DNA of 47,873 nucleotides, from the NCBI GenBank assembly GCA_964384675.1, contig CAYLNK010000009.1, positions 1 through 47,873 on the forward strand, read 5' to 3'. Each line of letters begins with the position of its first letter. The first letter of the stretch is position 1. The DNA comes from an uncultured Holophagales bacterium. Lineage in GTDB: Bacteria; Acidobacteriota; Thermoanaerobaculia; UBA5066. The notes under the pieces are model-generated. The model did no database searches and was not told where the DNA came from. It was given only the letters and a program-made list of their open reading frames with translations. Made by a program: the position numbers and the translations under genes. Shown one piece after another: positions 1-45,434 of the stretch.

Positions 1-374
1 GACTCCCCGGCCCGGCGCGCCGCCACACGCAGCTCCCACACCTCGCCCCAGCCGGCGCCCGCTCCGAAGCAGAGGTCGCCACGGCCCCGGGAGAGGCCGA
101 CGAGGACGGGTGGCACGACGCGAGTCTCGAAGGGCCCGCCCGAAAGGCCAGCCGTCGGCCAGGGGGCGCTCCCCGGCGCGGCCAGGTCGAGCCGGGCGAT
201 TCGCGCCGCGCCATCGGCCTGGAGCAGCGTCTCCACACCGAGGGGATCGGACCGGCGAAGCCGCCCCTGCGCAGTCCCGAGGAGGAGGGAGAGCGCGAGG
301 AGGGAGACCGTGACCGTGAGGAGGAGGCCGACGAGGAGCGCGGTGCCGTGCCGCCCCGTCTTGCGATCGTTCAC
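1..374 (-). CDS. Hypothetical membrane-anchored protein, N-terminal part only (gene continues past window start)
   Basis: Reverse-complement reading from a GTG at about 372-374, preceded by a GGAGG SD, gives VNDRKTGRHGTALLVGLLLTVTVSLLALSLLLGTAQ... (one TM helix then a soluble region). The GTG overlaps the TGA stop of the upstream minus-strand gene (GTGA), suggesting translational coupling. Not in the ORF track as a full ORF because it runs off the window. Confidence 0.35.
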   Translation of the reverse strand, partial: MNDRKTGRHGTALLVGLLLTVTVSLLALSLLLGTAQGRLRRSDPLGVETLLQADGAARIARLDLAAPGSAPWPTAGLSGGPFETRVVPPVLVGLSRGRGDLCFGAGAGWGEVWELRVAARRAGE

Positions 375-1600
375 CTCGTGGCCTCCCAGAAACGTCTCGG
401 CACGTAGCTCAGCAGCTGGGCCCGCCGCGCGAACGAGGCCCCCTGTCCCGGGTACGGGCTGTAGCCGACGGGACCCGCGCCCAATCGGGTCCCGGTCGGC
501 GGCGGGGCGTCCAGGAGTCGGACTCCCTCCAGCCGCGACCGGTGGGAATTGCCCGCCAGCTCGACGCGGAGGTCGCGCACCGGACTCTTCTCGACCAGCC
601 CCACGCGGACCAGGCTCACCAGGGGCCTCCCCAGGTCGTCGACGAGGCGCGGTGCCACGTCCGGCCGATCCGGGACCCAGCGGCTCGCGCCACCCTCCGA
701 GATCCGGTATCCGACCTGCAGGTCCTCGATCTCGTCCGCGATGCGGACCACCTCGTATCGTCCGCCGCCGACGAAGCGCGCGACGGCGAGATACGGGTGC
801 GGGAAAGCGAGCGACTCCGGGTCGGCCGCGGCGAAGTAGTCCGGCGGCGCTCCCGGCTCGCCCCGCGCCACGAAGTACGTCAGGTCGTCGAGCAGCCCGA
901 GCGAAAGCTCGCCGCGCAGGCGGCGGGCGGCCGCGGCCCCGCCCGGAGAGAGCGGGAGGGCGTCGGGATCGTCGAAGCGGACCTTCACCTCCAGGACCCC
1001 CTCGCGCCTGCCCCCCTCCACGGCGGCGGACGTCAGCACCGCGGTCGCCTGGTGCCCCTCCTCGTCGGAGACGGCGCAGAAGACCTTGGCGGCGGTTCTG
1101 CCGGCGCGAGCCAGGAGACCGCCCCACTCCCCGACCTGCGGGAGCAATCCGAAGCCGACCGCCCCCGGTGCCGTGACCCGGATCCACTTCGGGGTCGGAT
1201 GGCGTGAGGCGATCCGGAACGTGGTCTCCCCCGAGGCAGGCGGTTGCGCCGGCTGGACCCGGAAGAGCGGCGAGCCGAGCACGCCCCGGATCTGGAGCTG
1301 ATCCGTACCCGCCCGGACCGCGACGTCTCCGAGCGCGGTCGAGAACCTCGCGCCCTTCCCCGAGTTGTTCGCCCGCGCGACGAGCGCGGCCGCCGCGGAG
1401 ATCCCGGCGCCGGCCGCCCGGACGTCGCGCGACAGGGCGTGAGCGGCAACCTGGATCGAGGCCCCGAGCTCCTGGGCCTGTCCTCCGAATCGGACCATGC
1501 GCGTCGTCCGGTCGAAGACGTTCAAGAGGCCGAGGACGAGGACCGAGAGGAACGCCAGGGTCAGCAGCGCCCCCGAGAACGGGAGCCGGGACGGCCTCAC
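371..1600 (-). CDS. Pilus-cluster membrane-anchored protein (409 aa) with an N-terminal hydrophobic pseudopilin-like anchor; function unknown
   Basis: 409-aa ORF with a GTG start (rc 'cac' at 1598-1600) overlapping the stop of the upstream pseudopilin gene (GTGA). N-terminus MRPSRLPFSGALLTLAFLSVLVLGLL, then a soluble domain. Strong GC3 bias. Lies in an operon with the minor pilins and PilY1. Confidence 0.55.
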   Translation of the reverse strand: MRPSRLPFSGALLTLAFLSVLVLGLLNVFDRTTRMVRFGGQAQELGASIQVAAHALSRDVRAAGAGISAAAALVARANNSGKGARFSTALGDVAVRAGTDQLQIRGVLGSPLFRVQPAQPPASGETTFRIASRHPTPKWIRVTAPGAVGFGLLPQVGEWGGLLARAGRTAAKVFCAVSDEEGHQATAVLTSAAVEGGRREGVLEVKVRFDDPDALPLSPGGAAAARRLRGELSLGLLDDLTYFVARGEPGAPPDYFAAADPESLAFPHPYLAVARFVGGGRYEVVRIADEIEDLQVGYRISEGGASRWVPDRPDVAPRLVDDLGRPLVSLVRVGLVEKSPVRDLRVELAGNSHRSRLEGVRLLDAPPPTGTRLGAGPVGYSPYPGQGASFARRAQLLSYVPRRFWEATR

Positions 1601-2010
1601 GGCACGAACCGCAGGACGGTCAGACGGACGCGAGGCGTCAACCCCGGAAGAGCCGCCGCTCCCCTTCCCGGCCTGCGGGCCGTCACACGGACCCGTTCCA
1701 GACTCTCTCTCGGACCCGGGACCACGTCGACGTCGACGACGACCGGCGGCGTCCCGTCGGGCCTCGAGGGGGGCGACTCCACGGCCTCGTGGGTGAGGGC
1801 TTCCTCCGCGGCGGACTCCGCGCAGAGGGCGGTGGTTCCGTCGTCCCCGGGACCGGCTTCCCGGCGACGACCGCGTAGCAGGAGCGGCACGACGACGGCA
1901 ACGAAGACGGCCACGAGGAGCACCGTGAGGACGGCCTCCAGGGTCGAGAGACCGCCGGGGCGGGAGGCTCGCCGAGTCGTCGGCCCGGCTCGCCGCGGGG
2001 GGAGGGACAC
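1597..2010 (-). CDS. Prepilin-type pseudopilin (PilE/GspI-like minor pilin)
   Basis: Contains the class-III signal / N-terminal helix ...SRPGG|LSTLEAVLTVLLVAVFVAVVVPLL, with Glu at +5 after the predicted cleavage Gly. The ORF-track start at 2070 is a TTG lying inside a perfect hairpin, so an internal GTG near 2010 (leader about 19 aa) is preferred. The C-terminal part is low complexity, hence moderate confidence. Confidence 0.45.
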   Translation of the reverse strand: MSLPPRRAGPTTRRASRPGGLSTLEAVLTVLLVAVFVAVVVPLLLRGRRREAGPGDDGTTALCAESAAEEALTHEAVESPPSRPDGTPPVVVDVDVVPGPRESLERVRVTARRPGRGAAALPGLTPRVRLTVLRFVP

Positions 2011-2052
2011 GCCCCGATTATCGGCTTGCTCGAGCGCAGCCCGCCCCGAAAG

Positions 2053-2082
2053 CGAGGGGCGAGGCGTCAACGCCTCGCCCCT
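2053..2082 (-). terminator. Perfect 13-bp inverted repeat GAGGGGCGAGGCG-tcaa-CGCCTCGCCCCTC (GC-rich hairpin) about 20 nt downstream of the pilY1-like stop. Likely an intrinsic terminator/attenuator or mRNA-stabilising stem.
   Basis: Read directly from the sequence. The palindrome sits between the PilY1-like gene and the downstream pseudopilin gene. There is no clear U-tract (GCTTTCGGGG follows on the transcribed strand). Confidence 0.4.
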
Positions 2083-2104: not shown

Positions 2105-5100
2105 TTACTTCAGCTCACGCCACCACGTGGGCGTCAGGTGCGCCGGGGGCGGCTCCAGCTGGACGTCGGTGACGAGCTGGGTGTACGCGTGGTCACCGCT
2201 CTTCGAGATGATGACGTCCCCCTGCGGGGTGATCGAGAACCCGCCGCCGGCTCCTTCGCCACCGTCCGTCGACTCGACCGGCTCCGCCTGGACCTCGCAG
2301 TCCACGGAGGTGAAGGTCAGCTTCACGACGTATGTCCGCCCGAGGCAGCCGTTGTCCGGGTCGAACACCAGGAAGAGCGCGTCGGACGTGCCGATGCCCG
2401 AGCGCGGCACGACGATGAACGGAGACGCGATGACCTGGGTGTGCTGTCCCAGGTTGCCCGCGCCGGCCGGATCCCCTGCCGGGCGCGGAATGTCGCGCAG
2501 GCGGACCCGGAACATGCCCGGATCCGACGGGCTGCTGTCCATGGGCGAGACGCCCTTGGGCTTGACGGCGAGATAGAGGCTCGGCTGGAAGTACTGGTCG
2601 CTGTCGTCGCCGATCTGCGACCCGGACACGGCGTCGCTCTCCTCGTAGAACGAACCGCTCCCGAACGTGAAGAGATCGCAGCCCGAGCCCCTCGGACCGT
2701 AGCCGCTGACGGCGGTCGTGTAGTAGAGCGGCTGGGACTGTCCCACGAACTTCGAGGCGTCGATGCCGACGACGAAGGTGTCGAACGCCGCGGGCGCGCT
2801 CGAGGAGACGAACCAGATCCGTCCGTTCAGGTCCGGGACGAGGCCCAGATCGGCCTTGTTGTCCGGGAGGAAGGACGGAGCGTCGGTATCGAGGAACCCC
2901 GCGTGCGCCACGGCCTGGTTACCGACCCACGGCGGGTTCGTCGCGTCGTTCGTGGTGTTGTGGGGAGCGCTCGGGGTCTGGAACGTGCCATCGGTCACGT
3001 CCAGCACGAACGCCTTCGGCGCGACGGGCGTGGAAACGGTGCTGGCCGGATTCTCTCCGCCCCCGAAGACCATCCGCCACTTGTCGGCTGTGACCGGCGC
3101 GACGCCCGGAATGCTCCACGTCTCGAACACGTTCGCGATCCCGTCGGTGGCCGTGGCGCCGTCGAGAGTCCAGAGGACCTTCACCGGCTCGGCCGGGCTC
3201 GTGACGGCGCCGTCGAACGTGCCGTAGCTCGGGTCGGTGGGCGACGGGTGGGTGATGTCGATCGCCGCGATCAGCCTCCCGGCAGGCCCCTCGGTGATGA
3301 TGCCGACGGTCTTGTAGGTCGGCTCGGGCAGCGCGTTCGGGAAGTAGACGTCGAGGTAGCGGAGCGAGCTCGCCACCCCGTAGACGTGGTTGGTGAAGCC
3401 GGACAGCTGTCCCGTCGGGCTGTCGGCGGCGTTGATCAGGTAGTTCTGGTAGAAGGTGATCTGCCGGGCCAGGAGGTTCGGCGGCAGGAGGGCGGTGATC
3501 TCGCTCCCGTCCTCCGCGTTGAAGCAGTGCAGCATGCCGTCGTCGGAGCCGACCCAGACCACCGGCTTGCGCTGGGAGTAGGCGGCCTCGAATCCGGCGT
3601 GGTTCTGAACGGAGAGGTTGGAGTAGCGAGTCGGCGGCGTCACGACCGCGGGGGTCGAGTTGATGATGCCTCCCAGCATCCACTCGCGCCGGGCGCCCTG
3701 GGCCAGCGCGCTGGTACCGGAGCCGTCGTTGCCCAGGATGAAGTCGATCACTCCCGGGGTGAAGGTGCCCGCGGGCGAGCTGGTCAGGACGTCGAGCGCG
3801 TTCCTCGTCGCGGCCGAGTAGTCGATCTTGATCAGGGCCCCGCTCGAGGGGTTCCAGGTGTAGATCTTGCGAGTGGCGGGATCCGTGGACCGGAGGACCT
3901 GACCCGCGTCCCACTTCTCGTACAGCGGGTCGGACGGGAGCCTCGAGACGTCGAGAGCGTAGAAGTGTCCCTTCCACTCGGGGTAGTCGACCGACGAGAG
4001 GTACTGGGTGTTCTGCTGGCCGTCGATCGTCCCGCCGCTGACCGGCGCGGTCGTGACGTAGTCACCGGCGGCTCCGGCGTCGGCGATCTTCTTGAGAGCG
4101 GCGGCCAGGGAGTCCGGGTCGTTCGCGAAGATCGCGTAGTTGCCGTGGTTCGCGGTGCCGTACTCGAAGGTGTTGGGCGGGAGGTAGCTGCCGGCGTTCG
4201 TGATCCCGAAGTCGGCGAGCGCGGCGTCGGTGCGCCCCCGGTACGCGATGCGGTTCAGCTCGCACGGCCCGACGATGTCGCTGATGCCGATGACGAACGT
4301 GCGCACGCGAAGGGCCGGATCCGGCAGCAGCGGGACGCCACGCTGGAGCTGGAGGTCCCAGGCCAGATCGGCGGACCCGGCGCCGAACTGGGTGTAGTTG
4401 TTGTTCGGGATGGCGCTCGGGTCGGCGTCGGAGCAGTTGAATCCGCTCGCGGGCGGCACCGCGCCCGCGCCGTCGCAGCAGGCCCCGAAGACGGGGTTCA
4501 CGGTGTAGCCGGTACACGGCAACGAGGCCGGCGCCGGGTCGCCCAGCGCGTCCACGCACTCGGCGAAGCAGAGCGCATCCGGGTAGCGGTGGGTACAGTC
4601 GGCGAACCACGCGCCGTCGTTGGGGTTACAGGTGTTCGAGAGACCATCGGTGATCAGGACCGTGCCGTAGCCGCGGTTGCACTTGTAGAGCGGATCGACG
4701 TCGAAGATGTCCTGATGGGACTGGAGCGCGAGGTCGAGCGCCGACTTGGTCGGCGTCCAGCCCGATGGCGTCAGTCCTCCGCTGGCCGAGAGCTGCAGAT
4801 AGCCTTCGATCGCGGTCACGTCGTGGTTGTCCACCGGCTGGATGTTGTCCCGGATGTCCACGAGCTGCTGGACGTTCGCATACTGGCACTTGATGGCCTC
4901 GGCCGCGGTGTACGGGACCGGAAGCGTCGTGCCGTAGGTGATGAGGCCCCAGTTCACCGAGAACCGCGTCTGGCCGACGACGTCCTTCGGAGCCGAGACC
5001 GTGAAGGTCCCCAGGACGGGCTGGCCAACGCTGCAGCCGGCGTCGCTCACACCGCAGGCCTGGAAGGGGATGCCCGGATCCTCCAGGTAGTTGTCGGGTC

Positions 5101-7018
5101 CGGCCTCCAGCGTGTAGACCCACGTATCGACCGTCCCGACCGAGTTGGTGGCGGTGGTGATCACGACTCGCGGGAAGGTGACGTCGCTGGCCGTCGGGGG
5201 TGAGCTGGGCGGGAAGACGCCGCCGGCCACCGTCCAGGCGGCGGTGAGGAGCGGGCTGTTGGTGATGATGTCGGGAGCCACGTACTCGGGGATGATCGCG
5301 ACGGAGTTCCCCATCGCGTTCTTGGCCGAGGCCATGCGCGACGGGAGGTCGAACTTGAGGGTGTAGCTCCACTTGTTGAAGCCGGTGAAGCCGGGGACGA
5401 GCGGATCGGCGTCGCAGTCCTCGTGGGGCTCCTGCGGCAGGGCGGCGCCCATCGCCGGCTCCTGATGGCCGGAGGCGCCCGGATCCGCGAGCGGCGCGGG
5501 CGATGCCTCGGAAACCCGTCCGGGCCGGAAAGGCGGAACCTCGGTGGGCGTCCGGGTCGGCGTCCGCGTCCGTGTCGACGTGGGCGTGACCGTCGCGGTC
5601 GCCGTCGGCGTCCGCGTGCTCGTCGGCGTCGGCGTGATCGTCGGCGTCTGGGTGGGCGTGCTGGTGTTCGGCGGCGTGGCCGTCGGCGTGAGCGTCGGCG
5701 TCGACGTGAACGTATGGGTCGGCGTCCGCGTTATGGTCGGCGTCACCGTCGGCGTGTTCGTGTTGGGCGGCGGCGTCGTCGTCGGGGTCCGCGTCGGCGT
5801 CGAGGTCGGCGTGAACGTGAACGTGGCCGTGGGCGAGATCGTCGGCGTCTGAGTCGGCGTGCGCGTCGGCGTCCGCGTGAACGTGGACGTCGGGGTGCGC
5901 GTCGGCGTGATCGTCGGCGTGTTCGTCACGGTCGGCGAGATCGTCGGCGTCTGGGTCGCGGTCCGCGTGGGTGTCCGGGTCGGCGTGCGCGTCGGGGTCT
6001 GGGTGACCGTGAACGTCGGCGTGATCGTGGCGGTCGGGGAGATGGTCGGCGTCCGGGTGGCGGTGCGCGTCGGCGTGCGCGTCGGCGTCGACGTCGGGGT
6101 GAACGTCAGGGTGAAGGTGGGCGTGATCGTCGGCGTGGGTGTGATGGTCGGCGTGCGGGTCGGTGTGCGCGTCGGCGTCCGGGTGGGCGTGGCCGTCGGG
6201 GTGAACGTCGGGGTGAACGTCGGCGTGATCGTGGCCGTCGGCGAGATCGTCGGCGTGCGGGTGGGCGTACGGGTCGGCGTCCGGGTGGGCGTCTGAGTCG
6301 ACGTCGGGGAGATCGTTGCCGTGGACGTCGGCGTCACCGTCGGCGTCACCGTGAACGTGGCGGTTGCGGTCGCCGTCGGTGTGCGCGTCGGCGTGGCGGT
6401 CCCGGTCGTCGTCGGTGTGCTCGTCGGCGTCACCGTGGGCGACGCCGTGGGCGTCCTCGTCGGCGTGGACGTCTGCGTGGCGGTCGGCGTGGACGTCGCG
6501 GTGGACGTCGGCGTCACGGTCGGCGTGCTCGTGGAGGTCGGCGTCTGGGTCGGGGTCGTCGTGGGCGTCGTCGTGGGGGAATTCGTGGGCGTCGTCGTGG
6601 GCGTGCTCGTCGGCGTCGTCGTCGGCGTCGCGGTGGGGGTCTCGGTCGGTGTCTCGGTCGGCGTGGACGTGGGAGTGACCGTCGGGGTCTCGGTCGGCGT
6701 GAAGGTCGGCGTTGCCGTGGGCGTCTCGGTGGGCGTCGGCGTCGGGCCGGGGTTGGCGTCGGCGCAGGACCGCGACCAGCTCAGGAGGCCGGTCGAGTCG
6801 GCGCCGTGGACCAGCCGGGTCCCGTACTTGTCGAGGGCCATCGAGCCGCTCAGGTCGAGCACGATGATCAGGTTCTGCGGGATCTGGAGGCGCGAGATCT
6901 GGCGGAGCGGGTCGAGCCCCTCGGCCTCGGCCGTCGGCGTGACGGGCCCGACCGGCCCGAGCCCGAACAGGACGGCGGTGAAGAAGGCGACGCTCTTGCG
7001 CAGGATTGCGTTTCTCAT
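2105..7018 (-). CDS. pilY1: PilY1/PilC-family pilus tip adhesin (about 1637 aa): signal peptide, split VWA domain carrying a huge Thr-Pro repeat and an inserted beta-rich domain, and a C-terminal PilY1 beta-propeller domain
   Basis: Signal peptide [20 protein letters not shown]. The VWA beta1/MIDAS motif [10 protein letters not shown] is later completed by ...[11 protein letters not shown]...VLITDGLSN. The C-terminal region has the PilY1/PilC signature [21 protein letters not shown] and [14 protein letters not shown] at 7018 (M6 of the track ORF) with a GAGGG SD; the track start at 7033 is a GTG. Sits directly after the pilX-like gene, the canonical position. Confidence 0.8.
5534..6751 (-). 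repeat. About 1.2 kb tandem repeat (period 12 nt = 4 codons, with a higher-order unit of about 36 codons) encoding roughly 100 T-P-T-x units of the PilY1-like protein
   Basis: Plus strand reads gtcggcgtg / gtcggcgtc / ggcgtgcgc... repeated. In the PilY1 frame this gives [18 protein letters not shown]...[25 protein letters not shown]... over residues about 95-500. The other two frames give VGVRVGV (antisense) and HADRDAD artefact ORFs. Confidence 0.85.
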
Positions 7019-7029
7019 GATCGGCGCCC

Positions 7030-7683
7030 TCACTTCGCGATACTCCCGGTCGAGCCCGGGTCACAGTCGGCCTGGAGACAGGCCGGAATCGACTCGTTGG
7101 TGAGCTCGAGCTGCTCCTCGAGCACGCGGGTCACGGCGTTCTGCCCGTTCACGAGGACACTCCCCACCGCGATCAGGTTCACCTTGTTGTCACCGTCCGA
7201 GCCCGGGTCGGGCACGCCGGAGGGAGACAGGGCCCCGCGATCTTCCACGTTGTTGCGGATGTAGAGGGAGTACTGGGCCCTCAGGTAGAAGGCGCTGCCC
7301 GAGTCGGCGGACGCCTGGAGCCGCGGAACGTCCCGGTTCAGGTACGTGATCGATCCGACCCGGAACGACTTGGCCTGGGCACCGCCGCCCGGAGGGTTGA
7401 ACACCCCCGATGGTGCCGAGGCGCCGAGGAGCGTGCTGATCGGATTCCCGGCCCGCGAGTAGTTGGCCAGGACCTCCTCTCCCGTCCGGAGGCCGGTCTC
7501 CGCGGCGTAGAAGCTCGTCTTGGCCAGCCGGTCGTTGCCCGAGATCCGGTCTTCCACCTGCGTGAAATAGGCGATCCCGATCCCGACCACGGTCAGGATC
7601 AGGACGACGAGGATGACCGTGATGAGGGCGCTCCCTCGAGCGGGGGTTCTGCGACGGCGGCGCGGGGCCCGGCTGGCAGTCAT
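7030..7683 (-). CDS. PilX/GspK-like minor pilin (pseudopilin lacking Glu5)
   Basis: ATG at 7681-7683. N-terminus [17 protein letters not shown]|[35 protein letters not shown] has a prepilin-like leader and hydrophobic helix without the conserved E5, as in PilX/GspK. A 6-nt gap separates it from pilW-like; 11 nt separate it from pilY1. Confidence 0.6.
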
Positions 7684-7689
7684 GGCAGA

Positions 7690-8967
7690 TCAGCTCCCAA
7701 GGACTCGGTTGCGGAACAGCAAGGTGGTGGTGAGGCGGTAATACTCGTAGAGCGGGTCGCCTGCCGCGGGGACCGCACCGGCGGCGTGATCCTCGACGGC
7801 GGGGCGAAAGTGGTTGGCCAGGGCACGAGCGCCCGCACCGGAGGCGAGCGACCGCGCCGCGATGGTCAGCCGCGGCGAACGGGCGACGACCGTGACGCGG
7901 AGCCCGATGACGAATTGGGCGTCACGCGTGGCGTCGAACGGCGTGGCCGAGGAGCTGCACGTACCGGTGGTCAACCCCTGGCACGGGCCAGCTTGCGGAG
8001 GGATGCCCCCGGTGAAACCGGCATCGGCGAGCCGGTTCGTCCCGGAGTTCCCGACCGTGCCGTTCGCGTAGAGGTACGCCACCTGCAAGTCGACGATGTT
8101 CTCCACGATCGGGACGAAGTTCGTCCCCGGCGCGTCGACGTCGGCGTCGAAGATCCCGAGCTTCTGCTCGAGGTTCCCGTTGCGGACCCGGAACGACACG
8201 TACTGGACCCCAGCCGCGAGCGTGACCGGGGCGACGAGAGCCAGCTCCCCGTTCGGGGCTATCCCCTTCCACTCCGAGACCCCGAGGTCGAACTTCACGC
8301 CGGTGATGTAGTTCGTCGCCCCGCCCGAGATCGTGCAGTCGCTCGCGCCGTAGTCGGTGATCTGGAAGTACTGCCAGTTCCCCTTGTTGTCGATGAGGGT
8401 CAGGAGCCCCGACTGCTCGGTGGCACCCACGGTGTGAGCCCCCGTGAGCTGCTTGAAGAGCTCCATGTTGGTGCTCGGGCAGCCGGCGGAAAAGTTGACG
8501 GCGTGGCCCCCCGCCGCGTGCTTGTCGCCCCCGAGCGTGATCACCACCTTCAGGGGGTTCTCGGAGACGGAGAGCGAGACGATGTCGGTCCCCAGGTCGG
8601 CCAGGCTGCTGCTGGAGACGTCGTTGTAGGACCCCTGCTTCAGGACGTTCGGCGTGGCCTCGTTCGCCCCGTACCAGCAGATGAGGGCATTGGGGTTGTT
8701 CACCCCGGGCGAGACGTTTCGGACGGCCCGCACGTAGTTCAGGTCCGCCGCTCCCTGGACGTTGAACGTCAGGTAGTCGACCGCCCGGCGCGCCGCCTGG
8801 CGAGGCATCGTGACCATCTGCTGGCGCTCGGCGAACGCCTTCATCTGGAAGAGGAGCGTCAACGCCACGATCATCACCAGCACCAGGAGGGCCAGCGAGA
8901 CCGTGGCCTCCATCAGGGAGAAGCCCCTGCGATCGTCAGATCGGCGACGTGAGAATGCGCGCGACAT
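7690..8967 (-). CDS. PilW/GspJ-like minor pilin
   Basis: MSRAFSRRRSDDRRG|FSLMEATVSLALLVLVMIVALTLLFQ carries the classic prepilin motif G/FxLxE. 425 aa. Lies between the PilV-like and PilX-like genes in canonical fimU-pilVWXY1 order. Confidence 0.6.
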   Translation of the reverse strand: MSRAFSRRRSDDRRGFSLMEATVSLALLVLVMIVALTLLFQMKAFAERQQMVTMPRQAARRAVDYLTFNVQGAADLNYVRAVRNVSPGVNNPNALICWYGANEATPNVLKQGSYNDVSSSSLADLGTDIVSLSVSENPLKVVITLGGDKHAAGGHAVNFSAGCPSTNMELFKQLTGAHTVGATEQSGLLTLIDNKGNWQYFQITDYGASDCTISGGATNYITGVKFDLGVSEWKGIAPNGELALVAPVTLAAGVQYVSFRVRNGNLEQKLGIFDADVDAPGTNFVPIVENIVDLQVAYLYANGTVGNSGTNRLADAGFTGGIPPQAGPCQGLTTGTCSSSATPFDATRDAQFVIGLRVTVVARSPRLTIAARSLASGAGARALANHFRPAVEDHAAGAVPAAGDPLYEYYRLTTTLLFRNRVLGS

Positions 8968-9547
8968 AGTCGATCCTCTTGGCGTTGAGCGTGAATTCGC
9001 CGGGGGTGACCTGCCGTTGGCTGAAGTAGCGCCGGGCGGTCGTGGACGTGGACGCCTCTACGGTGACCGTGACGATCACGGACTCGTCCGAGCTCGAGGT
9101 CGCGGCAGCGTTCCGGATGTTGAACCGGATCTGATACGGACCGTCGTCGATCTCCATGACGTTCGCGCCGGCCGGGCCCCAGAAGGCCCAGGCGGTGGCA
9201 TCCGCCGCCGCGTTGTCGGGAAGCACGAAATCGGTGTCGGGAGGCGCCCCCCCGGGCGAGAGCGGCAGGGGGATCCCGCAGCCCGACGGGGGGACGAAGT
9301 TGTAGTCGAAGACGGCCGAGGCGCGGTACATGCCGTAGACGATCCGGATGTTCTCCACCACCTGCTGGGCCTTGAACGTCATCTGCGTGCGGGCCGCCGC
9401 GCCGGCGTTCACGACGAGGGAGAGCGAGTACATCTCGAGGATCCCGACCATCAGGAGGGCCAGCACCGTCATGGCGATCAGGACCTCGATCAGGCTGCTC
9501 CCCCGAGCTCGACGCGGCCTGCGCAGGGACCTTCTGAGCTGCTTCAT
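8936..9547 (-). CDS. PilV/GspI-like minor pilin
   Basis: MKQLRRSLRRPRRARG|SSLIEVLIAMTVLALLMVGILE prepilin motif. ATG at 9545-9547 with a GGGAGAG SD. 203 aa. Confidence 0.65.
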   Translation of the reverse strand: MKQLRRSLRRPRRARGSSLIEVLIAMTVLALLMVGILEMYSLSLVVNAGAAARTQMTFKAQQVVENIRIVYGMYRASAVFDYNFVPPSGCGIPLPLSPGGAPPDTDFVLPDNAAADATAWAFWGPAGANVMEIDDGPYQIRFNIRNAAATSSSDESVIVTVTVEASTSTTARRYFSQRQVTPGEFTLNAKRIDYVARILTSPI

Positions 9548-9560
9548 CTTCTCTCCCTGC

Positions 9561-10172
9561 CTAGTACAGCGACCTGTTGGCCTGGACGCTCCAGACCGGG
9601 CTGACCCGGACCTGGAGCAGGACGGGAGGCTTCAGCGCGGGGTTCGAGCCCACCATCCGGGTGTGGGTGAGGCTCAGCGTGGCGATTCCGGCGATCTGGC
9701 CGGCGGCCGAGGCGAAGGTCCGGGTTCTCAGGTCACAGCCGAGCCAACGCACCGTCGAGGCCGACGTGCCGTTGGCGGACCAGAATGCCGACTGCACCTC
9801 TCCGGCGTTCGTCGTGGAGAAGGCGATGTCGCCGGGCAGAGTCAGCGTCTGGATCACCGCGTCGGTCGAGGTGTCGGGTACGTTGTCCTGGTTCGTGTCC
9901 GCCACGAGCTGGAACTGGCGGGCCGCGCCGTCGAAGACCACGAAGATCGAGGTCCCCCGGGTCTGCATCTCGGAAGGGGCACGCGACATCAGGGTCGTCA
10001 GGTCGGAAGCCGCGGACGCGAGGCGCTGCTTCTGGATCGCCTTGAGGCCCTCGACCGAGGCGATCACGAAGGTCAGGCCGAGGACCAGCACCACAGCCAG
10101 GAGCTCGATCATGCTGAAGCCGCGCCGTCCGGAGCGCCGCCCAACCGCCGAAACCCGTGCCCTGACCGTCAC
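9561..10172 (-). CDS. FimT/FimU/GspH-like minor pilin
   Basis: The prepilin motif RRG|FSMIELLAVVLVLGLTFVIA lies about 72 aa into the track ORF (9561..10340). An internal GTG near 10172, preceded by GGGAGG, gives a 16-aa leader, so that start is preferred. First gene of the minor-pilin operon. Confidence 0.55.
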   Translation of the reverse strand: MTVRARVSAVGRRSGRRGFSMIELLAVVLVLGLTFVIASVEGLKAIQKQRLASAASDLTTLMSRAPSEMQTRGTSIFVVFDGAARQFQLVADTNQDNVPDTSTDAVIQTLTLPGDIAFSTTNAGEVQSAFWSANGTSASTVRWLGCDLRTRTFASAAGQIAGIATLSLTHTRMVGSNPALKPPVLLQVRVSPVWSVQANRSLY

Positions 10173-10204
10173 GCGTGGAATCCTCCCTTGCCACGGGCGA
10201 CAAA

Positions 10205-10218
10205 GCCATTCTCGTGCC
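10205..10218 (-). promoter_or_regulatory. Candidate σ54-type (-24/-12-like) promoter cGGCAC-gagaa-TGGC about 29 nt upstream of the FimT-like start
   Basis: The reverse-complement strand reads GGCACGAGAATGGC with GG-N10-GC spacing as in σ54 promoters. Related CGGCAC-N5-TTGA elements sit at the same distance upstream of both major pilin genes. Sequence-only call. Confidence 0.25.
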
Positions 10219-10224
10219 GCCGCG

Positions 10225-10247
10225 ATTGGCCCGATGGCAAGGCCAAT
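10225..10247. promoter_or_regulatory. Inverted repeat ATTGGCC-N9-GGCCAAT in the divergent minor-pilin / pilT control region; candidate regulator binding site
   Basis: Read from the sequence (attggcccgatggcaaggccaat). Lies in the 243-bp divergent intergenic region. Confidence 0.3.
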
Positions 10248-10308
10248 TGGATCAATACCTTGGCGTGGTTTCGCGATCTGCGACCCTGTCTCGGCCCCGG
10301 AGTCGATC

Positions 10309-10323
10309 GTTACGATTCGTAAC
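10309..10323. promoter_or_regulatory. Near-perfect 15-bp palindrome GTTACGA-t-TCGTAAC; candidate operator upstream of the HEAT-pilT gene
   Basis: Read from the sequence. AT-rich relative to the genome, about 95 nt upstream of the 10415 start. Confidence 0.3.
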
Positions 10324-10414
10324 ACGTCTCGTTCGCTCACGGCGATGCTCCCTTCGTTCCGGCCACGGTGATTCGGCTACGATTATCCTCTTCCCGGATC
10401 CGAGGAGGTCGAGC

Positions 10415-12934
10415 GTGGTCCTAGACAAGCTCCGGAAGGGACTGAGAGCCGAGCCCCCCGTCGTCGCGGCCCTGCGGGCCCACCAGTGGTCCTCGGAGGG
10501 TCAGAAACGCGACCTGATCCAGAAGTTCAAGCTGGCCCCGGACCTGGAGATCGACGAGGTCGTCTGGACCGCGCTCGACCAGACGGCCGAGATCCGCGAG
10601 GCCGGGATCGAGGTCCTGAAGCGGCGACCCGACCCGCACGCCGTCCTCGAGGCGCTGGTCCCTCTCCTCCGGACCCGCTCCGAGGCCGCTCGCCGGGCCG
10701 TGCAGCGGTTCCTCCAGGAGGTGGCCGGGGACCAGCTGGGCCCGTTCCTCTCCCAGCAGTGCGAGGAGGGGGACGACTTCGGCCGGCTCGCCGCCGTGGA
10801 GCTCGCCAAGAGCCTGCCCGGCGACGGCGCCATCTCGATCTACAAGCGGCTGGTGCGGGACCCGAACCTGGGGATCCGCCGCCGGGCGCTGAAGGCCCTC
10901 AGCGAATCGACTCTCCCCGGCGCCGCCGCGCTCGCCTCGAACATGGCGGTCAAGCTGCTCGAGGACGAGGACGAGGAGATCCGGCTCGCCGCGCTCGCGC
11001 TGCTGGAGAAGAACCCCGACGAGGCTCACATCGGCTCGATCCTGCAGCTCGCCGCGGCGGGCGCCGGGCGGATCGCGGACGCGGCGTTCTCGGCCCTGCG
11101 GCGCCTCCTGCCGCTCTCCAAGGCGGACCACACCAACGACATCCTGCCTCTCCTCGCCAGCGGCAGCGCCAGCGTCCGTACCGGAGCCCTCTCGCTCCTG
11201 GAGCGGACCCCGCCCGACCCCCTCGCCCGGGCGTTCGTCGAGCAGTTCAACGGCTCCTTCGTCTGGGTCCGCGACCGGGCGCTCGAGACCCTGAACCGCG
11301 CGTTCCCGACCTTCCTCCCGGCGCTCCTGCGCCTGACGGCGGATCCGGACCGGAAGGTCGCCGGCGGAGCCGCGGAGCTCGCGCTCATCGCTCCCGACCC
11401 ACGAGCCCTGCCGGTCTGGATGAACCTGCTCGACAACCCGGACTGGTGGATCAGGAGCCGCGCGCTCGAGAGCCTCGGCAAGTACGGCGCGGGCCGGGAC
11501 GACGTCTACCAGAAGCTGGCGGGGGCCCTGCGCGTGCCCGAGCTGACCCTCTCGGCGGCGTCCGCGCTCGGTGAGTTCGGCGACCCCCGGGGCCTGCAGC
11601 CGTTGGGACAGGCGTTCCAGGCGGCGATGGCCGCACCCGACGAGCAGCTCGAGATCCTCGACTCCATGGCCAAGCTCGGCGCGAAGGACCCGAGGGTGGG
11701 TGCCTACCTCGGGAACGTCTCCAAGCACCCGTCGTTCGACGAGAGAGTCCGCGAGAGGGCGCGTGACCTGGTGGGCCGGCTCCAGGGCGCCGCGGCGATG
11801 GCCGCCATCCCCTCGGTCGCGTCGAGCCCGCAGCGGCTCGACCTGGCCAACGTCGAGAACGCCAGGCTGGTCGACTTCCTCGCGGACACCGTCGCCAAGG
11901 GCGCGTCCGACTTCCACCTGGCCACCGGTTTCGCTCCCCACCAGCGGATCAACGGCGCGCTGACCTCCCTCGACGTGCCCGGATTCTCACGGGAGCGGTC
12001 GCGCCAGCTGCTCAAGCAGGTCCTGACCGACGAAGAGTGGCGCCGGCTCGAGCAGGATCGGCAGCTCGACATCTGCCTGAAGGTGGCCGGGCTGGGGCGC
12101 TTCCGGGCGAACCTCTTCTCTCAACGGAGCGGCTTCGACGCGTCCTTCCGCGTCATCCCGCACTCGCTCCCGACGCTGTCCGAGCTCGGGCTGCCCCAAT
12201 CCGCCTGGGAGCTGACCCGGTACACGCAGGGGCTCGTCCTGGTGACCGGCCCGGCCGGCTGCGGCAAGTCGACCACGCTCGCGACGCTGCTCGACCGCGT
12301 GAACGAGACACGGCGCGGCCACATCATCACGGTCGAGGACCCCGTCGAGTTCGTGCACGTGAACAAGGAATCCCTGGTGAACCAGCGGCAGGTGCCCCAG
12401 CACACGAAGTCGTTCGCCCGGGCCCTGAAGGCCGCGCTCCGCGAGGACCCGGACGTCATCATGATCGGCGAGATGCGCGACCTCGAGACGATCTCGCTCG
12501 CGATCTCCGCGTCGGAGACGGGGCACCTCGTCTTCGGCACCCTCCACACGACGACCGCGACCGGCACGATCGACCGCGTGATCAACGCCTTCCCGGCCGG
12601 CCAGCAGGGACAGATCCGCGCCATGATCGCCGACTCGCTGAAGGCGGTCATCTCGCAGGCTCTGCTCCCGAGGCGGGGCGGAGGCGGGCGCGTGGCGGCG
12701 TTCGAGATCCTGCGCGGCACGCAGAACGTCGCCGCTCTCATCCGCGAGGCGAAGACCCACCAGCTGCCGTCCGCGCTCCAGACGGGACAGCTCGCCGGAA
12801 TGGTCACGATGGACCAGGCGCTGATCCGGCTCGCCGAGGACGGCAAGGTCGACCTCGAGGCCGCGTACGACCGGGCCCTGAAGAAGGAGCCCTTCGAGAA
12901 GCTGCTCAACGAGGAAAGGCAGGCCCTGGCATGA
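10415..12934 (+). CDS. PilT/PilU-family twitching-motility ATPase with an N-terminal HEAT-repeat extension of about 480 aa
   Basis: C-terminal half has Walker A GPAGCGKST, Asp box VIMIGEMRD, His box GHLVFGTLHTTTA and the PilT signature AALIREAK. The N-terminal half shows repeated HEAT/PBS-lyase-like units (PDPHAVLEALVPLL, DPNLGIRRRALKAL, DEEIRLAALALL, NPDWWIRSRALESL). Start chosen at GTG 10415, 6 nt after GAGGAGG; the track start at 10175 lacks an SD. Confidence 0.8.
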   Translation: MVLDKLRKGLRAEPPVVAALRAHQWSSEGQKRDLIQKFKLAPDLEIDEVVWTALDQTAEIREAGIEVLKRRPDPHAVLEALVPLLRTRSEAARRAVQRFLQEVAGDQLGPFLSQQCEEGDDFGRLAAVELAKSLPGDGAISIYKRLVRDPNLGIRRRALKALSESTLPGAAALASNMAVKLLEDEDEEIRLAALALLEKNPDEAHIGSILQLAAAGAGRIADAAFSALRRLLPLSKADHTNDILPLLASGSASVRTGALSLLERTPPDPLARAFVEQFNGSFVWVRDRALETLNRAFPTFLPALLRLTADPDRKVAGGAAELALIAPDPRALPVWMNLLDNPDWWIRSRALESLGKYGAGRDDVYQKLAGALRVPELTLSAASALGEFGDPRGLQPLGQAFQAAMAAPDEQLEILDSMAKLGAKDPRVGAYLGNVSKHPSFDERVRERARDLVGRLQGAAAMAAIPSVASSPQRLDLANVENARLVDFLADTVAKGASDFHLATGFAPHQRINGALTSLDVPGFSRERSRQLLKQVLTDEEWRRLEQDRQLDICLKVAGLGRFRANLFSQRSGFDASFRVIPHSLPTLSELGLPQSAWELTRYTQGLVLVTGPAGCGKSTTLATLLDRVNETRRGHIITVEDPVEFVHVNKESLVNQRQVPQHTKSFARALKAALREDPDVIMIGEMRDLETISLAISASETGHLVFGTLHTTTATGTIDRVINAFPAGQQGQIRAMIADSLKAVISQALLPRRGGGGRVAAFEILRGTQNVAALIREAKTHQLPSALQTGQLAGMVTMDQALIRLAEDGKVDLEAAYDRALKKEPFEKLLNEERQALA

Positions 12935-14049
12935 GCGCCGGCGCACCGACACCCCAGGCCTCCGAAGCCCGTCGCATCGACGCCCTCCTGCGTCTCGTCC
13001 TCGAGAAGAAGGCCTCGGACCTCCACCTCGCCGTCGGCTCGCCGCCGATGATCCGCGTCGACGGCGAGCTCGAGCGGGTGAAGTGGCGCACCCTCACCGA
13101 GGAGGAGTTCGTGAACCTGATCGGCCCGATCGCGCCCCCGAAGCTGTTCGCGGCGTGGCGGGAGACGGGCGACACGGATTTCGCCTACGCGATGGGCAAC
13201 CGCGCCCGCTTCCGCGTCAACGTCTTCAAGCAGGAGCACGGGCCCGCCGCCGTCCTCCGGATGATCCCGCCCCGCGTGCTGACGATCGAGGAGCTCGGCA
13301 CGCCGCCCCAGGTGGCGAGCGTCGCGAAGGTGCCGCGCGGCCTCGTCCTGGTCACCGGGCCCACCGGCTCGGGGAAGTCGACCACGCTCGCGGCTCTCCT
13401 GGACTGGGTGAACCGGACTCGCGCGTTTCACATCGTGACGATCGAGGACCCGGTGGAGTTCCTCCACGTCTCCCAGAAGTCGATCATGACGCACCGCGAG
13501 GTCGGCTTCGACACGATGTCGTTCTCGGAGGCGCTGAAAGCGGCGCTGCGCGAGGACCCGGACGTCGTCCTCGTCGGCGAGCTGCGCGACCTCGAGACCA
13601 TGACCAACGCGCTCCAGGCCGCGGAGACCGGCCTCCTGGTCTTCGGCACGCTTCACACGAACTCGGCGTCCAAGGCGATCGACCGCCTCATCGACGGCTT
13701 CCCGTCCGAGGAGCAGGACCAGACGCGGACGGTGCTGGCCGAGGTGCTGAAGGCGGTCGTGGCCCAGGTCCTCCTGAAGAAGAAGGGAGGCGGCCGCATC
13801 CCGGCCTTCGAGGTGCTCCGGGGCTCGCCGGCCCTGTCGAACGCGATCCGGGAGGGGAAGACTTCCATGATCACCACCCTGATCCAGACGGGGAAGTCCC
13901 AGGGGATGATCTCCATGGACCAGTCGCTCGCCGACCTCGTGGTGAACGACATCGTCGACATCGAGGAGGCGTTCGACAAGGCGCTCGAGAAGGACGCCTT
14001 CCGGGCCCTCGTGGAGAAGAGGCGCGCGGCGGCGAACGCCGCCACCTGA
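12931..14049 (+). CDS. pilT: Type IV pilus retraction ATPase PilT (372 aa)
   Basis: ATG at 12931 overlaps the upstream TGA (ATGA). Walker A GPTGSGKST, DVVLVGELRD, GLLVFGTLHTNSA, AIREGK. The track ORF 12037..14049 carries a spurious N-terminal extension in the same frame. Confidence 0.9.
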   Translation: MSAGAPTPQASEARRIDALLRLVLEKKASDLHLAVGSPPMIRVDGELERVKWRTLTEEEFVNLIGPIAPPKLFAAWRETGDTDFAYAMGNRARFRVNVFKQEHGPAAVLRMIPPRVLTIEELGTPPQVASVAKVPRGLVLVTGPTGSGKSTTLAALLDWVNRTRAFHIVTIEDPVEFLHVSQKSIMTHREVGFDTMSFSEALKAALREDPDVVLVGELRDLETMTNALQAAETGLLVFGTLHTNSASKAIDRLIDGFPSEEQDQTRTVLAEVLKAVVAQVLLKKKGGGRIPAFEVLRGSPALSNAIREGKTSMITTLIQTGKSQGMISMDQSLADLVVNDIVDIEEAFDKALEKDAFRALVEKRRAAANAAT

Positions 14050-19453: not shown

Positions 19454-19945
19454 CTACTTCTGCTGGCCTTCCGCGTACTGGATGAACTGGCCGTCGACGA
19501 AGATGATGTCGTTGTTGAAGCTGGTCGTCGGGCCGTACCCGGCAACATCCGGCCCCGTGGTCGTGTCCTTGCCGAAGGAGACGAGGATGTAGTCCTGGTT
19601 CGAGTTGCCCGTGGTGTACTTGATCGTCTCGTTCCAGCCATCCTGGGTCGGAACGATCCGGATGTACGTGGGGGAGAGCTGGCCGATCACAGTCGTGCTC
19701 ATCGCGGCGGTCGGATAGCCCAGGCCGCTGGGCAGGGTGGCGGCAGCCGCCGGGTACTGGTTGTTGTCGACGGCGTACGCCTCGGCCGCGGTGCCGATGC
19801 TGCGCATGTCACCCATCGTCCTCTTCTGCTTCGCGCGCTGGATCGCGTTCAGCAGGTTGGGAATCGCGATGGCCACGATGATGCCGATGATCGCGACGAC
19901 GATCAGCAGCTCGATGAGGGTGAAACCCTTCCGATTACGCTTCAT
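19454..19945 (-). CDS. Major (pseudo)pilin, GspG-type (T2SS major pseudopilin-like / PulG-type type IV pilin)
   Basis: MKRNRKG|FTLIELLIVVAIIGIIVAIAIPNLLNAIQRAKQKRTMGDMRSIGTAAEAYAVDNNQYP, then QDGWNETIKY...DYILVSFGKDTTTGPDV...NDIIFVDG, matching the GspG family layout. AAGGAGG SD. The track ORF starts 9 codons earlier. Confidence 0.8.
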   Translation of the reverse strand: MKRNRKGFTLIELLIVVAIIGIIVAIAIPNLLNAIQRAKQKRTMGDMRSIGTAAEAYAVDNNQYPAAAATLPSGLGYPTAAMSTTVIGQLSPTYIRIVPTQDGWNETIKYTTGNSNQDYILVSFGKDTTTGPDVAGYGPTTSFNNDIIFVDGQFIQYAEGQQK

Positions 19946-19969
19946 GTAGATAGCCTCCTTGACTGCGAG

Positions 19970-19986
19970 CATTCAAGAGCGGTGCC
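19970..19986 (-). promoter_or_regulatory. Candidate σ54-like promoter cGGCAC-cgctc-TTGAa about 27 nt upstream of the pilin-1 ATG
   Basis: The same CGGCAC-N5-TTGA element is found 29 nt upstream of pilin-2 (about 20650-20663). It matches the σ54 -24 box (TGGCAC) but the -12 reads TTGA rather than TTGC, so the call is tentative. Confidence 0.3.
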
Positions 19987-20620: not shown

Positions 20621-20649
20621 GGTGTTGCCCCTCGATTCGAAGTCAGGAA

Positions 20650-44049: not shown

Positions 44050-44079
44050 GGCGCGATCAGTGTATTGCAGACTAGACGG

Positions 44080-45369: not shown

Positions 45370-45434
45370 CCCGCACCGGGCCCGACCGCCCGGCCAAGGG
45401 GGGCTCGGGGGGACCGGACGCGGAGGTCCCCCCG

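Follow-up and report, generated by a model that had tools for sequence, protein, structure and literature searches.

A long Thr/Pro-rich loop in the VWA domain of a putative PilY1-type tip protein from an uncultured Holophagales bacterium

Described pilus tip proteins and the Holophagales homologue

PilY1 proteins of the vWA type, such as those of P. aeruginosa, Legionella and M. xanthus (PilY1.3), combine a signal peptide, an N-terminal VWA domain with a MIDAS and a C-terminal beta-propeller, and are encoded after fimU, pilV, pilW and pilX. Cysteines of the vWA domain are functionally important in these proteins. In P. aeruginosa PA14, surface signalling requires Cys147 and Cys152, which are spaced as C-x4-C and alter force signatures (PMC8806160). 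A 2026 survey of PilY1 architectures lists vWFA and DUF4114 as the only N-terminal features (PMC13190605). In the large tip proteins PilC1 and PilC2 of Neisseria, too, the propeller leads into a short disordered tail, which is proposed to contribute a strand to the minor pilin PilK/PilX; their N-terminal module, however, is lectin-like and not a VWA domain. The concept of such a C-terminal 'plug' docking onto a minor pilin comes from recent work (bioRxiv 10.64898/2026.09.18.752573). VWA domains also stand at the pilus tip in RrgA, SpaC, PitA, GBS104, Mfa5 and S. sanguinis PilB, where extra 'arms' are inserted near the MIDAS face.

The protein considered here is encoded in a stretch of 47,873 nucleotides from an uncultured Holophagales bacterium, which as a whole is called the window. 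Judged from its sequence, it is a PilY1/PilC-type non-pilin tip protein, with a presumed location at the pilus tip. Its family profile matches P. aeruginosa PilY1 (C-terminal domain, PDB 3HX6) at E 8.8e-23. The same structure is the top Foldseek match of the predicted model (E 5.6e-14, TM 0.57, 17% identity in the alignment), which has a pLDDT of 80.9 and a pTM of 0.81. Together with the minor-pilin operon, these matches bear out the family assignment of a preliminary, sequence-only description of this DNA. All residue numbers are counted from an in-frame GTG at 7033, which overlaps the stop of the pilX-like gene and opens a minus-strand ORF (2105..7033) of 1642 aa with a GC3 of 0.94. The likely gene start is the ATG at 7018, with GAGGG 8 nt upstream, and the resulting gene has the coordinates given in the preliminary description. 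The features are as follows.

371..1600, minus strand: protein of 409 aa, family unassigned, conserved directly 3' of pilY1 in 21 related loci
1597..2070, minus strand: small downstream protein with a prepilin-like N-terminus (G/LSTLEAVL), as read from the sequence
2105..7018, minus strand: pilY1-like gene, ATG 7016-7018 the likely start
2108..2143, minus strand: disordered C-terminal tail, residues 1631-1642 (ending TWWRELK), candidate 'plug' for the PilX/PilK minor pilin
2144..4063, minus strand: PilY1-type beta-propeller region, residues 991-1630, with the PF05567 match at residues 1120-1182
4064..5374, minus strand: remainder of the VWA domain, residues 554-990, with hairpin strand 554-562, alpha1 566-574, T760 and D796
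5375..5542, minus strand: non-repeat rest of the loop, residues 498-553, with Cys540; the public gene call begins here (M528)
5543..6748, minus strand: Thr/Pro-rich (T-P-T-x)n tract, residues 96-497, from composition, repeat analysis and predicted disorder
5544..7103, plus strand: three antisense ORFs publicly called as genes (5544-5852, 5859-6296, 6321-7103), (V-G-V-R)n mirror artefacts of the Thr/Pro codons
6749..6838, minus strand: conserved GADSTG..W segment with the first hairpin strand (83-91) and Cys90
6839..6922, minus strand: conserved N-terminal motif EGxDPxRQI and VWA strand beta1 with MIDAS DxSxS (D60, S62, S64); strand 53-60 has a pLDDT of 94
6923..7018, minus strand: Sec-type signal peptide, M6-A37 (basic n-region, hydrophobic core, AEA/EG), read directly from the sequence
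7030..7683, minus strand: pilX-like minor pilin (PilX_N, GspK-like)
7690..8967, minus strand: pilW-like minor pilin (N_methyl motif)
8936..9547, minus strand: pilV-like minor pilin
9561..10340, minus strand: fimU/gspH-like minor pilin

The four prepilin-type genes lie directly upstream of the pilY1-like gene on the same strand. Of 80 related loci, about 45-60 keep this gene order, and about 60 retain the minor-pilin operon. An HMM search of the small protein at 1597..2070 gave no match. The signal-peptide layout recurs in full-length homologues. At the other end of the protein, the last 12 residues have a pLDDT below 50 and contain a nearly invariant WWxEL motif (family consensus WWxELQ, WWRELK here); the plug sequences of Neisseria PilC1/PilC2 differ from it.

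Two sets of profile searches proposed in the preliminary description, with PF05567 and with Pfam VWA models, had unequal outcomes. PF05567 does match the single window sequence, although at 22.2 bits it stays under the gathering score of 28.1; two homologues (P0051 and P0067) exceed that score. The window protein is thus remote in sequence from P. aeruginosa PilY1, and the Ca-binding motif is only partly kept: in a profile alignment extended by hand, the EF-hand-like loop of the propeller has Asp only at the positions of D855 and D859 (P. aeruginosa numbering), while D851 and N853 are not conserved. The Pfam VWA models (PF00092, PF13519 and similar) gave no match to the window protein at E up to 1 and none in 11 homologues at E up to 0.01. 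The sole sequence-level VWA signal is a profile match to the VWA domain of complement factor B (E 0.006).

The VWA reading is carried by the fold and its key residues. The protein has an alpha/beta Rossmann-like VWA fold, and the MIDAS residues D60-L-S62-G-S64, T760 and D796 (in VLITDG) are fully or almost fully conserved in 44 sequences, in line with the MIDAS motif first proposed from the sequence. Across 44-53 homologues, the key residues of all checked VWA and PilY1 motifs are likewise invariant or nearly so. The top structural matches include VWA pilus adhesins of Gram-positives and Bacteroidota, whose inserts are folded beta-arms, whereas the window protein has a predicted disordered polymer of 400 residues; moreover, most of these adhesins are part of sortase or type V pili and are not PilY1 propeller proteins.

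Topology and composition of the loop

Relative to vWA-type PilY1 proteins, the window protein adds a Cys-bracketed, mostly Thr/Pro loop of 449 residues after beta1, together with beta-rich and Cys-rich inserts. In the predicted structure, strands 83-91 and 554-562 flank a low-confidence segment (pLDDT about 30), and the VWA fold restarts at residue 554 with strand 554-562, helix 566-574 and strand 580-585. The embellishments outside the VWA core are a beta-rich insert of ~100 aa (586-690) and a Cys-rich segment of ~80 aa (800-880). An inserted domain of 330 aa, after which the fold was proposed to resume, therefore had the wrong extent.

The tract starts and ends on one beta-hairpin, located between helix alpha1 and the DxSxS loop, and Cys90 and Cys540 flank it on either side; the model thus places it in a closed loop at the hairpin tip of the VWA domain. 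The stalk or spacer envisaged in the preliminary description has a different topology and is not upheld. Nearly every family member has exactly two Cys in the loop segment, spaced as C-x4-C in minimal members and as C-[240-555 aa]-C in expanded ones, and the Cys90-Cys540 pair probably forms a disulfide. Loop length ranges across the family from ~31 to ~555 aa or more. Since the minimal members lack the tract, it is dispensable for core PilY1 function. In the window protein, 402 of the 449 loop residues belong to the tract; we estimate a contour length of about 150 nm for this loop and a reach of at most about 70 nm.

The tract itself comprises 197 Thr, 86 Pro, 24 Ser and 23 Arg, that is 49% Thr, 21% Pro and 55% Ser+Thr, while Thr makes up ~8% of the rest of the protein. 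Its net charge is about +19, and it is predicted to be disordered (pLDDT about 30). No second such tract occurs in any frame of the whole window. A long Thr/Pro tract had been recognised at the outset as about 100 near-perfect TPTx units; the tract stands, but its repeat is degenerate, with 69 exact TPTx matches in a (T-x)n pattern that has Pro at about half of the x positions. TRF finds a period of 6 at 57% matches and a 102-nt higher-order unit (x4.7) at 78%, which corresponds to a protein unit of 34 aa x4.7. Full-text literature searching found no paper describing such a Thr/Pro tract in a PilY1, in agreement with the novelty suggested by the preliminary description.

Relatives, selection and gene calls

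Between the same two Cys, similar tracts of 150 aa or more occur in at least 27 of 80 related acidobacterial species-level loci, some of these loci on contigs of 0.7-3.9 Mb. In the tract-bearing relatives (27-29 loci), the tract has 37-49% Thr and 12-31% Pro and is always net positive, with charges of +1 to +32. A sister subfamily (P0061, P0069, P0082, P0086) has a PA14/GLEYA domain inside this loop along with a long Thr-rich tract, whereas no PA14 domain occurs in the window protein. In fungal Epa/Flo adhesins, a PA14/GLEYA domain is carried on a Ser/Thr-rich glycosylated stalk. The resemblance to the sister subfamily is convergent only.

In the closest orthologue (L087), the tract is colinear and shares 80.6% aa identity, compared with 68.8% in the folded part. 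The two tracts differ by indels of 4, 24 and 28 aa, equal to 1, 6 and 7 TPTx units. Mismatches at the three codon positions are 0.155/0.144/0.50 in the tract and 0.237/0.186/0.392 in the folded part, as obtained from a protein-guided alignment of repetitive sequence, a method that favours amino-acid identity. Because the divergence is biased to the third codon position, the sequence comparison indicates purifying selection on the tract. Tract DNA has a self-identity of 65% at a 12-nt shift and a longest exact duplicate of 23 nt; with the 57% TRF matches, these values show that the tract lacks the long runs of identical short units expected of a contingency locus. The preliminary description had expected a hotspot of slipped-strand variation. 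The orthologue indels in unit multiples agree with that expectation, but the DNA repeat is degenerate and is therefore not a slippage hotspot. Furthermore, two full and four partial assemblies, all short-read consensus, showed no variant, and purifying selection speaks in the same direction.

Public gene calls give a different picture of the locus. They start at an internal ATG (M528) and yield a product of 1115 aa. Truncation of the gene at the repeat by gene callers has kept the feature largely out of protein databases. If this annotation were right, the upstream region would hold three plus-strand ORFs or a decayed remnant; otherwise, the repeat could be an assembly artefact. The same call recurs on six or more independent contigs, a like appearance is seen in roughly a quarter to almost half of the database relatives, and four short-read contigs stop within the repeat. 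These four match elsewhere at 99.97-100%, however, and two independent assemblies (JGI 3300024349 and Logan SRR10823763) agree base for base over all 4929 nt, which answers the concern over an artefact raised in the preliminary description. Moreover, the 1115-aa product would lack the signal peptide, VWA beta1 and the DxSxS residues. The 95 residues at the upstream end agree with the N-terminus of the family and stay in frame through 1.2 kb of stop-free sequence, and AlphaFold gives beta1 a pLDDT of 94. Translation of the antisense ORFs gives (VGVR)n, as follows automatically from reading ACN/CCN codons on the opposite strand, and the third-position bias fits the T-P-T-x frame, which settles the earlier choice between frames. 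Twenty-seven further species show the same in-frame architecture, in some cases on contigs of Mb scale. A correct public annotation or an artefactual repeat is thus very improbable and already contradicted by the present evidence.

Possible roles of the loop and a glycosylation lead

The best explanation as a whole, with a probability of roughly 0.6, is a type IV pilus tip protein whose VWA hairpin loop has grown into a functional Thr/Pro polymer. The protein would be exported via its Sec signal peptide, and the C-terminal beta-propeller and disordered tail, by analogy with known systems, would dock onto a FimU-PilV-PilW-PilX cap. The N-terminal VWA domain with its complete MIDAS would then point outward. 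In the window protein, the short C-x4-C hairpin-tip loop of minimal members would have expanded to its present length and, closed by a disulfide, would project as a floppy loop from the ligand-binding end of the adhesin. At the apex of the pilus, the tract may form a polymer brush or tether that is extended, resists proteases and probably carries O-glycans. This could widen the capture radius and give the pilus a multivalent and partly electrostatic hold on anionic surfaces. The loop may also act as an insertion platform, as in the sister subfamily, which displays a PA14/GLEYA lectin on a similar tract. Tract length would change by duplication or loss of whole TPTx units under purifying selection and not in the manner of a hypervariable contingency repeat. 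For all members, we infer tip localisation, the disulfide, glycosylation and adhesion.

Neutral low-complexity expansion in a permissive surface loop, with length drifting by replication slippage or unequal recombination, would account for the wide range of loop lengths, the minimal members without a tract and the orthologue indels in unit multiples; the 102-nt higher-order repeat also records past duplications. Nonetheless, composition is tightly kept across tract loci, the tract is more conserved than the folded part in the closest orthologue with mismatches mostly at third positions (0.50 vs 0.15), and Thr periodicity is retained even though the DNA has diverged, all of which makes neutral drift unlikely. 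A regulatory or mechanical loop appears similarly unlikely. It might shield the MIDAS sterically or act as a disulfide-gated entropic spring that alters the VWA response under pilus tension. Such a role would suit the position of the loop, which emerges directly behind the MIDAS residues DxSxS and is enclosed by two conserved Cys. The analogy is with Cys-dependent mechanosensing by the P. aeruginosa PilY1 vWA domain, whose pair Cys147/Cys152 resembles that of the minimal members in its C-x4-C spacing. On the other hand, the PA14 lectin inserted in the same loop of the sister subfamily favours ligand capture, and no signalling partner was identified within the window.

Going beyond the functional-polymer reading, the loop could mark a widespread, annotation-hidden class of acidobacterial tip adhesins, in which a disulfide-closed, polycationic, probably glycosylated Thr/Pro loop beside the MIDAS constitutes a new pilus-tip device. 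We consider this extension doubtful. If true, the loop would be a 'fishing-line' capture device able to carry lectin modules, or else an extensible element, gated by redox state or force, by which mechanosensing is tuned. A polymer brush, and not a folded binding site, would then account for part of the adhesion by the pilus.

O-glycosylation of the tract is plausible, and the window contains a candidate enzyme. A YfhO-family GT-C membrane protein is encoded at 17055-19364, overlapping the prepilin peptidase gene and 10 kb from the pilY1-like gene. In streptococci, YfhO-type enzymes O-glycosylate extracytoplasmic Ser/Thr-rich disordered regions and shield them from proteolysis (PMC12041528). 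The order kinase, PilD, YfhO is also found in a related locus whose PilY1 has no tract (L074); therefore, the YfhO-like protein may act on pilins or something else. The tract resembles mucins in being a long Ser/Thr/Pro-rich, disordered tandem repeat in a predicted exported protein. Like the tracts of S. mutans Cnm/WapA (Pgf system) and the streptococcal Ser/Thr-rich IDRs, it would be extracytoplasmic, disordered and Thr-rich. Secreted glycoside hydrolases have comparable Pro/Thr linkers. All of these are terminal stalks or inter-domain linkers, in contrast to the closed intradomain loop predicted for the window protein.

Identity and gene model of the PilY1-like protein

What a type IV pilus adheres to, and how a surface is sensed by the cell, is decided by PilY1/PilC proteins, whose N-terminal modules vary and define their function. 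The protein encoded in the window belongs to a known kind, the PilY1-type tip proteins with a VWA domain. What is new, and previously undescribed, is a clade-wide giant disordered loop within that domain.

2105..7033, minus strand: pilY1-like ORF, uninterrupted, 1642 aa from GTG (residue 1), GC3 0.94
5543-6748, minus strand: Thr/Pro tract, residues 96-497, 402 aa

With a GC content of 70% and its Ser/Thr kinases, the window could suggest a Myxococcota origin, which is rejected because the related loci, 80 in number, all belong to Acidobacteriota. Translation likely starts at the ATG at 7018, as judged from a GAGGG motif 8 nt upstream, which agrees with the gene coordinates of the preliminary description. 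That account also proposed HMM searches for PilY1 and VWA domains, of which only the former gave a hit, below threshold. In a single-sequence Pfam scan, PF05567 (PilY1 propeller) was the sole match, with 22.2 bits against a gathering score of 28.1; some homologues pass this threshold. No Pfam VWA family was found in that scan, and an NCBIfam scan of the protein returned nothing. Because the single-sequence scans were sub-threshold or empty, profile and fold comparisons were used instead. A 53-sequence family profile matched P. aeruginosa PilY1 (3HX6; E 8.8e-23) and the VWA domain of complement factor B (E 0.006). For a model of residues 498-1642 (pLDDT 80.9, pTM 0.81), the top Foldseek match was again 3HX6 (E 5.6e-14). 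Since this C-terminal model retrieved propellers only, a second model covering residues 1-1000 was built for the VWA question. The residues of the VWA metal site (MIDAS; D60, S62, S64, T760, and D796) show little or no variation across the family. The genes immediately upstream, on the same strand, are prepilin genes resembling gspH/fimU, pilV, pilW, and pilX, an order kept before pilY1 in about 45-60 of 80 related loci. Together, these data uphold the proposed assignment to the PilY1 family with a VWA MIDAS. The last 12 residues are disordered and close with a nearly invariant WWxEL motif, resembling the recently described "plug" tail of PilC/PilY1.

Public annotation presents a different gene. 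The identical database protein (P0001) comprises 1115 aa only and begins at M528, an internal ATG at window position 5452 (minus strand). Public contigs also carry three antisense "genes" of 260, 145, and 102 aa over the repeat.

6321-7103, plus strand: antisense ORF, (V-G-V-R)n, 260 aa in the public call
5859-6296, plus strand: antisense ORF, (V-G-V-R)n, 145 aa in the public call
5544-5852, plus strand: antisense ORF, (V-G-V-R)n, 102 aa in the public call

By their sequence, these ORFs are spurious, a stop-free mirror of ACN/CCN codons. Several observations contradict the public model. Residues 1-95 of the long ORF match the conserved N-terminus of full-length homologues (signal peptide, EGxDPxRQI, LIVLDxSGSM), the T-P-T-x frame has no stop across 1.2 kb of repeat, and AlphaFold builds strand 53-60, the VWA beta1 strand bearing DxSxS, with a pLDDT of about 94. 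Mismatches with the closest orthologue (L087) at the three codon positions are 0.155/0.144/0.50 in the tract and 0.237/0.186/0.392 in the folded part, a pattern consistent with a tract that is translated in the T-P-T-x frame and subject to purifying selection. On the third-position bias and the mirror nature of the antisense ORFs, expression of the alternative frame is rejected. The long ORF is thus the real gene, and the public annotation cuts off its N-terminus. An assembly artefact, which the preliminary description had named as a concern, is likewise contradicted by two independent assemblies that are identical over all 4929 nt of the ORF. Four further contigs end within the repeat, and their remainder matches at 99.97-100%.

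The Thr/Pro loop of the VWA domain

The tract contains 197 Thr, 86 Pro, 24 Ser, and 23 Arg among its 402 residues (221 Ser/Thr in all), and has a net charge of about +20. No second tract of this kind was found in any frame anywhere in the window. A TPTx repeat is present as first described, but a count of about 100 near-perfect units overstates it: 69 literal TPTx units occur within a looser (T-x)n pattern, with Pro at roughly half of the x sites. The underlying DNA is a degenerate repeat. Tandem Repeats Finder reports a period of 6 with 57% matches and a higher-order unit of 102 nt (34 aa) repeated 4.7 times with 78% matches; self-identity peaks at 65% at a 12-nt shift, and the longest exact duplicate spans 23 nt. 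In the model of residues 1-1000, segment 101-538 is predicted to be disordered (pLDDT about 30).

Elements of the VWA domain in the model of residues 1-1000, all encoded on the minus strand
Residues 53-60: beta1, then a short helix
Residues 83-91: first flanking strand
Residues 554-562: second flanking strand
Residues 566-574: canonical alpha1 (sequence [11 protein letters not shown])
Residues 580-585: strand after alpha1
About residues 586-690: beta-rich embellishment
About residues 800-880 (about 4394-4633): Cys-rich insert of ~80 aa following the VWA TDG strand, low-confidence
Up to about residue 990: remaining VWA elements

A strand (554-562) and alpha1 (566-574) directly follow the loop, so in this model the VWA fold resumes at once and not after the inserted domain of ~330 aa that had been proposed. 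Between DxSGSM and WxYxL..PSRM, almost all family members carry exactly two Cys. In minimal members the pair is spaced C-x4-C (e.g., CSDSKC) and in expanded members C-[240-555 aa]-C; here it comprises Cys90 and Cys540. Strands 83-91 and 554-562 would pair as a hairpin, and the two Cys would form a disulfide. The tract would in that case form a closed loop, located in the VWA domain at its MIDAS end, in place of the inter-domain stalk or spacer envisaged earlier. The separate Cys-rich insert carries ..[21 protein letters not shown].. and lies perhaps close to the MIDAS face, as an embellishment knotted by disulfides.

Recurrence and evolution of the tract

Thermoanaerobaculia and Holophagales (Acidobacteriota) form a large, environmentally abundant clade. 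In a survey of 80 species-level related loci from raw DNA, all came from Acidobacteriota MAGs, chiefly of these two groups, with a best identity of about 43%. Tracts of at least 150 aa occupy this loop in 27 of the 80, and likewise in L087; several lie on contigs of 0.7-3.9 Mb. Their composition is conserved (Thr 37-49%, Pro 12-31%), and net charge is positive throughout the 29 loci compared (+1 to +32). Acidic residues are very few in these tracts, and the x position is often taken by Arg or Lys. The cationic bias could reflect electrostatic adhesion or a recognition pattern for a glycosyltransferase. The clade repeatedly places a cationic Thr/Pro polymer of 200-550 residues into one Cys-bracketed loop beside the MIDAS.

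In a sister subfamily (P0061, P0069, P0082, and P0086; loci L060 and L064 included), the same Cys-Cys loop holds first a PA14/GLEYA lectin-like domain and then ~270 aa of Thr-rich tract. This layout is convergent with that of fungal adhesins, in which PA14 sits on a Ser/Thr-rich stalk. In three Holophagales loci (L011, L033, and L036), the loop spans 519-656 aa with three Cys, and a non-repetitive segment (..GNGFLR..DGQWFTADD..) that may be another inserted folded module precedes the tract.

The N-terminal features named in a 2026 survey of PilY1 architectures published so far are vWFA and DUF4114 alone (PMC13190605). Within the literature library searched, nothing relevant turned up on Thr/Pro-rich or glycosylated PilY1 or on acidobacterial PilY1, in keeping with the first impression that such a tract was undescribed. 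Standard gene callers truncate genes of this type at the repeat, so databases hold many PilY1 homologues without signal peptide and MIDAS strand. The family profile retrieves 538 clusters at an E of 1e-30 or better. Among the best 79 cluster representatives, about 20 lack beta1 and begin with the second hairpin strand or slightly ahead of it, and only 2 are called full-length with a Thr/Pro-rich loop; beta1 is absent from about 45 of 100 word-index matches. Between about a quarter and nearly half of the family's relatives in databases are therefore truncated at the N-terminus, and such records, together with spurious antisense ORFs, will mislead domain surveys and structure predictions.

Relative to L087, the tract is colinear with 80.6% identity, and the folded part shares 68.8% aa identity. 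Tract indels of 4, 24, and 28 residues equal 1, 6, and 7 TPTx units, indicating that length changes by whole units over evolutionary time. To this extent the suggested hotspot of length variation stands. A slipped-strand contingency locus is rejected on the low DNA self-identity and the short exact duplicates, and DNA degeneracy combined with the selection signature argues against a rapidly switching repeat. Neutral expansion of the tract is argued against by its conserved composition across loci and by the third-position bias against L087.

Possible roles of the loop and neighbouring genes

The structural placement of the loop, its recurrence, its selection signature, and its systematic mis-annotation are solid. 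An exported PilY1-like protein with VWA domain and MIDAS bears, at one defined position, a Thr/Pro loop that is disordered, cationic, and both conserved and recurrent in the clade; the function of this loop is inferred. The propeller and tail would place the protein at the pilus tip, and the disulfide would close the loop. The loop would widen the reach of the protein by serving as a polymer brush or tether, extended and resistant to proteases. It would add multivalent, partly electrostatic adhesion and serve as a platform also able to display a lectin. Less probably, the loop shields the MIDAS site or gates it mechanically; a possible parallel is the C147/C152 pair of P. aeruginosa PA14 PilY1 (PMC8806160). 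Should the loop prove functional, the known pilus-tip repertoire would gain adhesion by polymer brush or tethered lectin, and the family would offer a natural system for the effect of a giant disordered loop on a force-bearing VWA domain.

O-glycosylation of the tract is plausible from its Ser/Thr content, and a candidate O-glycosyltransferase of pilin or PilY1 is encoded nearby.

17055-19364, minus strand: YfhO-family GT-C membrane protein, about 11 TM segments, periplasmic domain, C-terminal TM
15874-17058: prepilin peptidase gene, overlapped by 4 nt by the end of the YfhO-family gene
19454-19972 and 20126-20776: T2SSG-type pilin genes, with the YfhO-family gene downstream of both

The YfhO-family protein weakly matches PgfM1/PgfM2 of S. 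mutans, and in streptococci enzymes of the YfhO type glycosylate disordered extracytoplasmic regions rich in Ser/Thr (PMC12041528, PMC5856776). The link to the tract is weak. Locus L074, the one locus in which the 10-kb flanks reach the YfhO-like gene, has the same gene order (YfhO-like with prepilin peptidase) and a PilY1 without tract, so co-occurrence gives the link no support; in most loci these flanks stop short of the gene.

Other genes of the window are as follows.

10175-12934, plus strand: PilB-like secretion ATPase with N-terminal HEAT repeats, 919-aa ORF (839 aa in the public call)
12931-14049, plus strand: PilT-like ATPase, 372 aa, following the HEAT-ATPase
1597-2070, minus strand: small protein with prepilin-like G|LSTLEAVL N-terminus, downstream of pilY1
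371-1600, minus strand: 409-aa protein, downstream of pilY1
20650-23901 and 42712-45636, minus strand: a large Ser/Thr protein kinase each, AAA_16 and TPR present in one of them
14063-15877, minus strand: PAS histidine kinase, adjoining pilus genes

The ATPase pair is divergent from the minor-pilin operon; the HEAT fusion is unusual, and the identity of this ATPase is around 60% in the majority of 24 related loci. No family match was found for the products of 1597-2070 and 371-1600. The 409-aa protein directly follows pilY1 in 21 related loci, most of them with large Thr/Pro loops, and the kinase-PilD linkage is seen again in L074 and L080.
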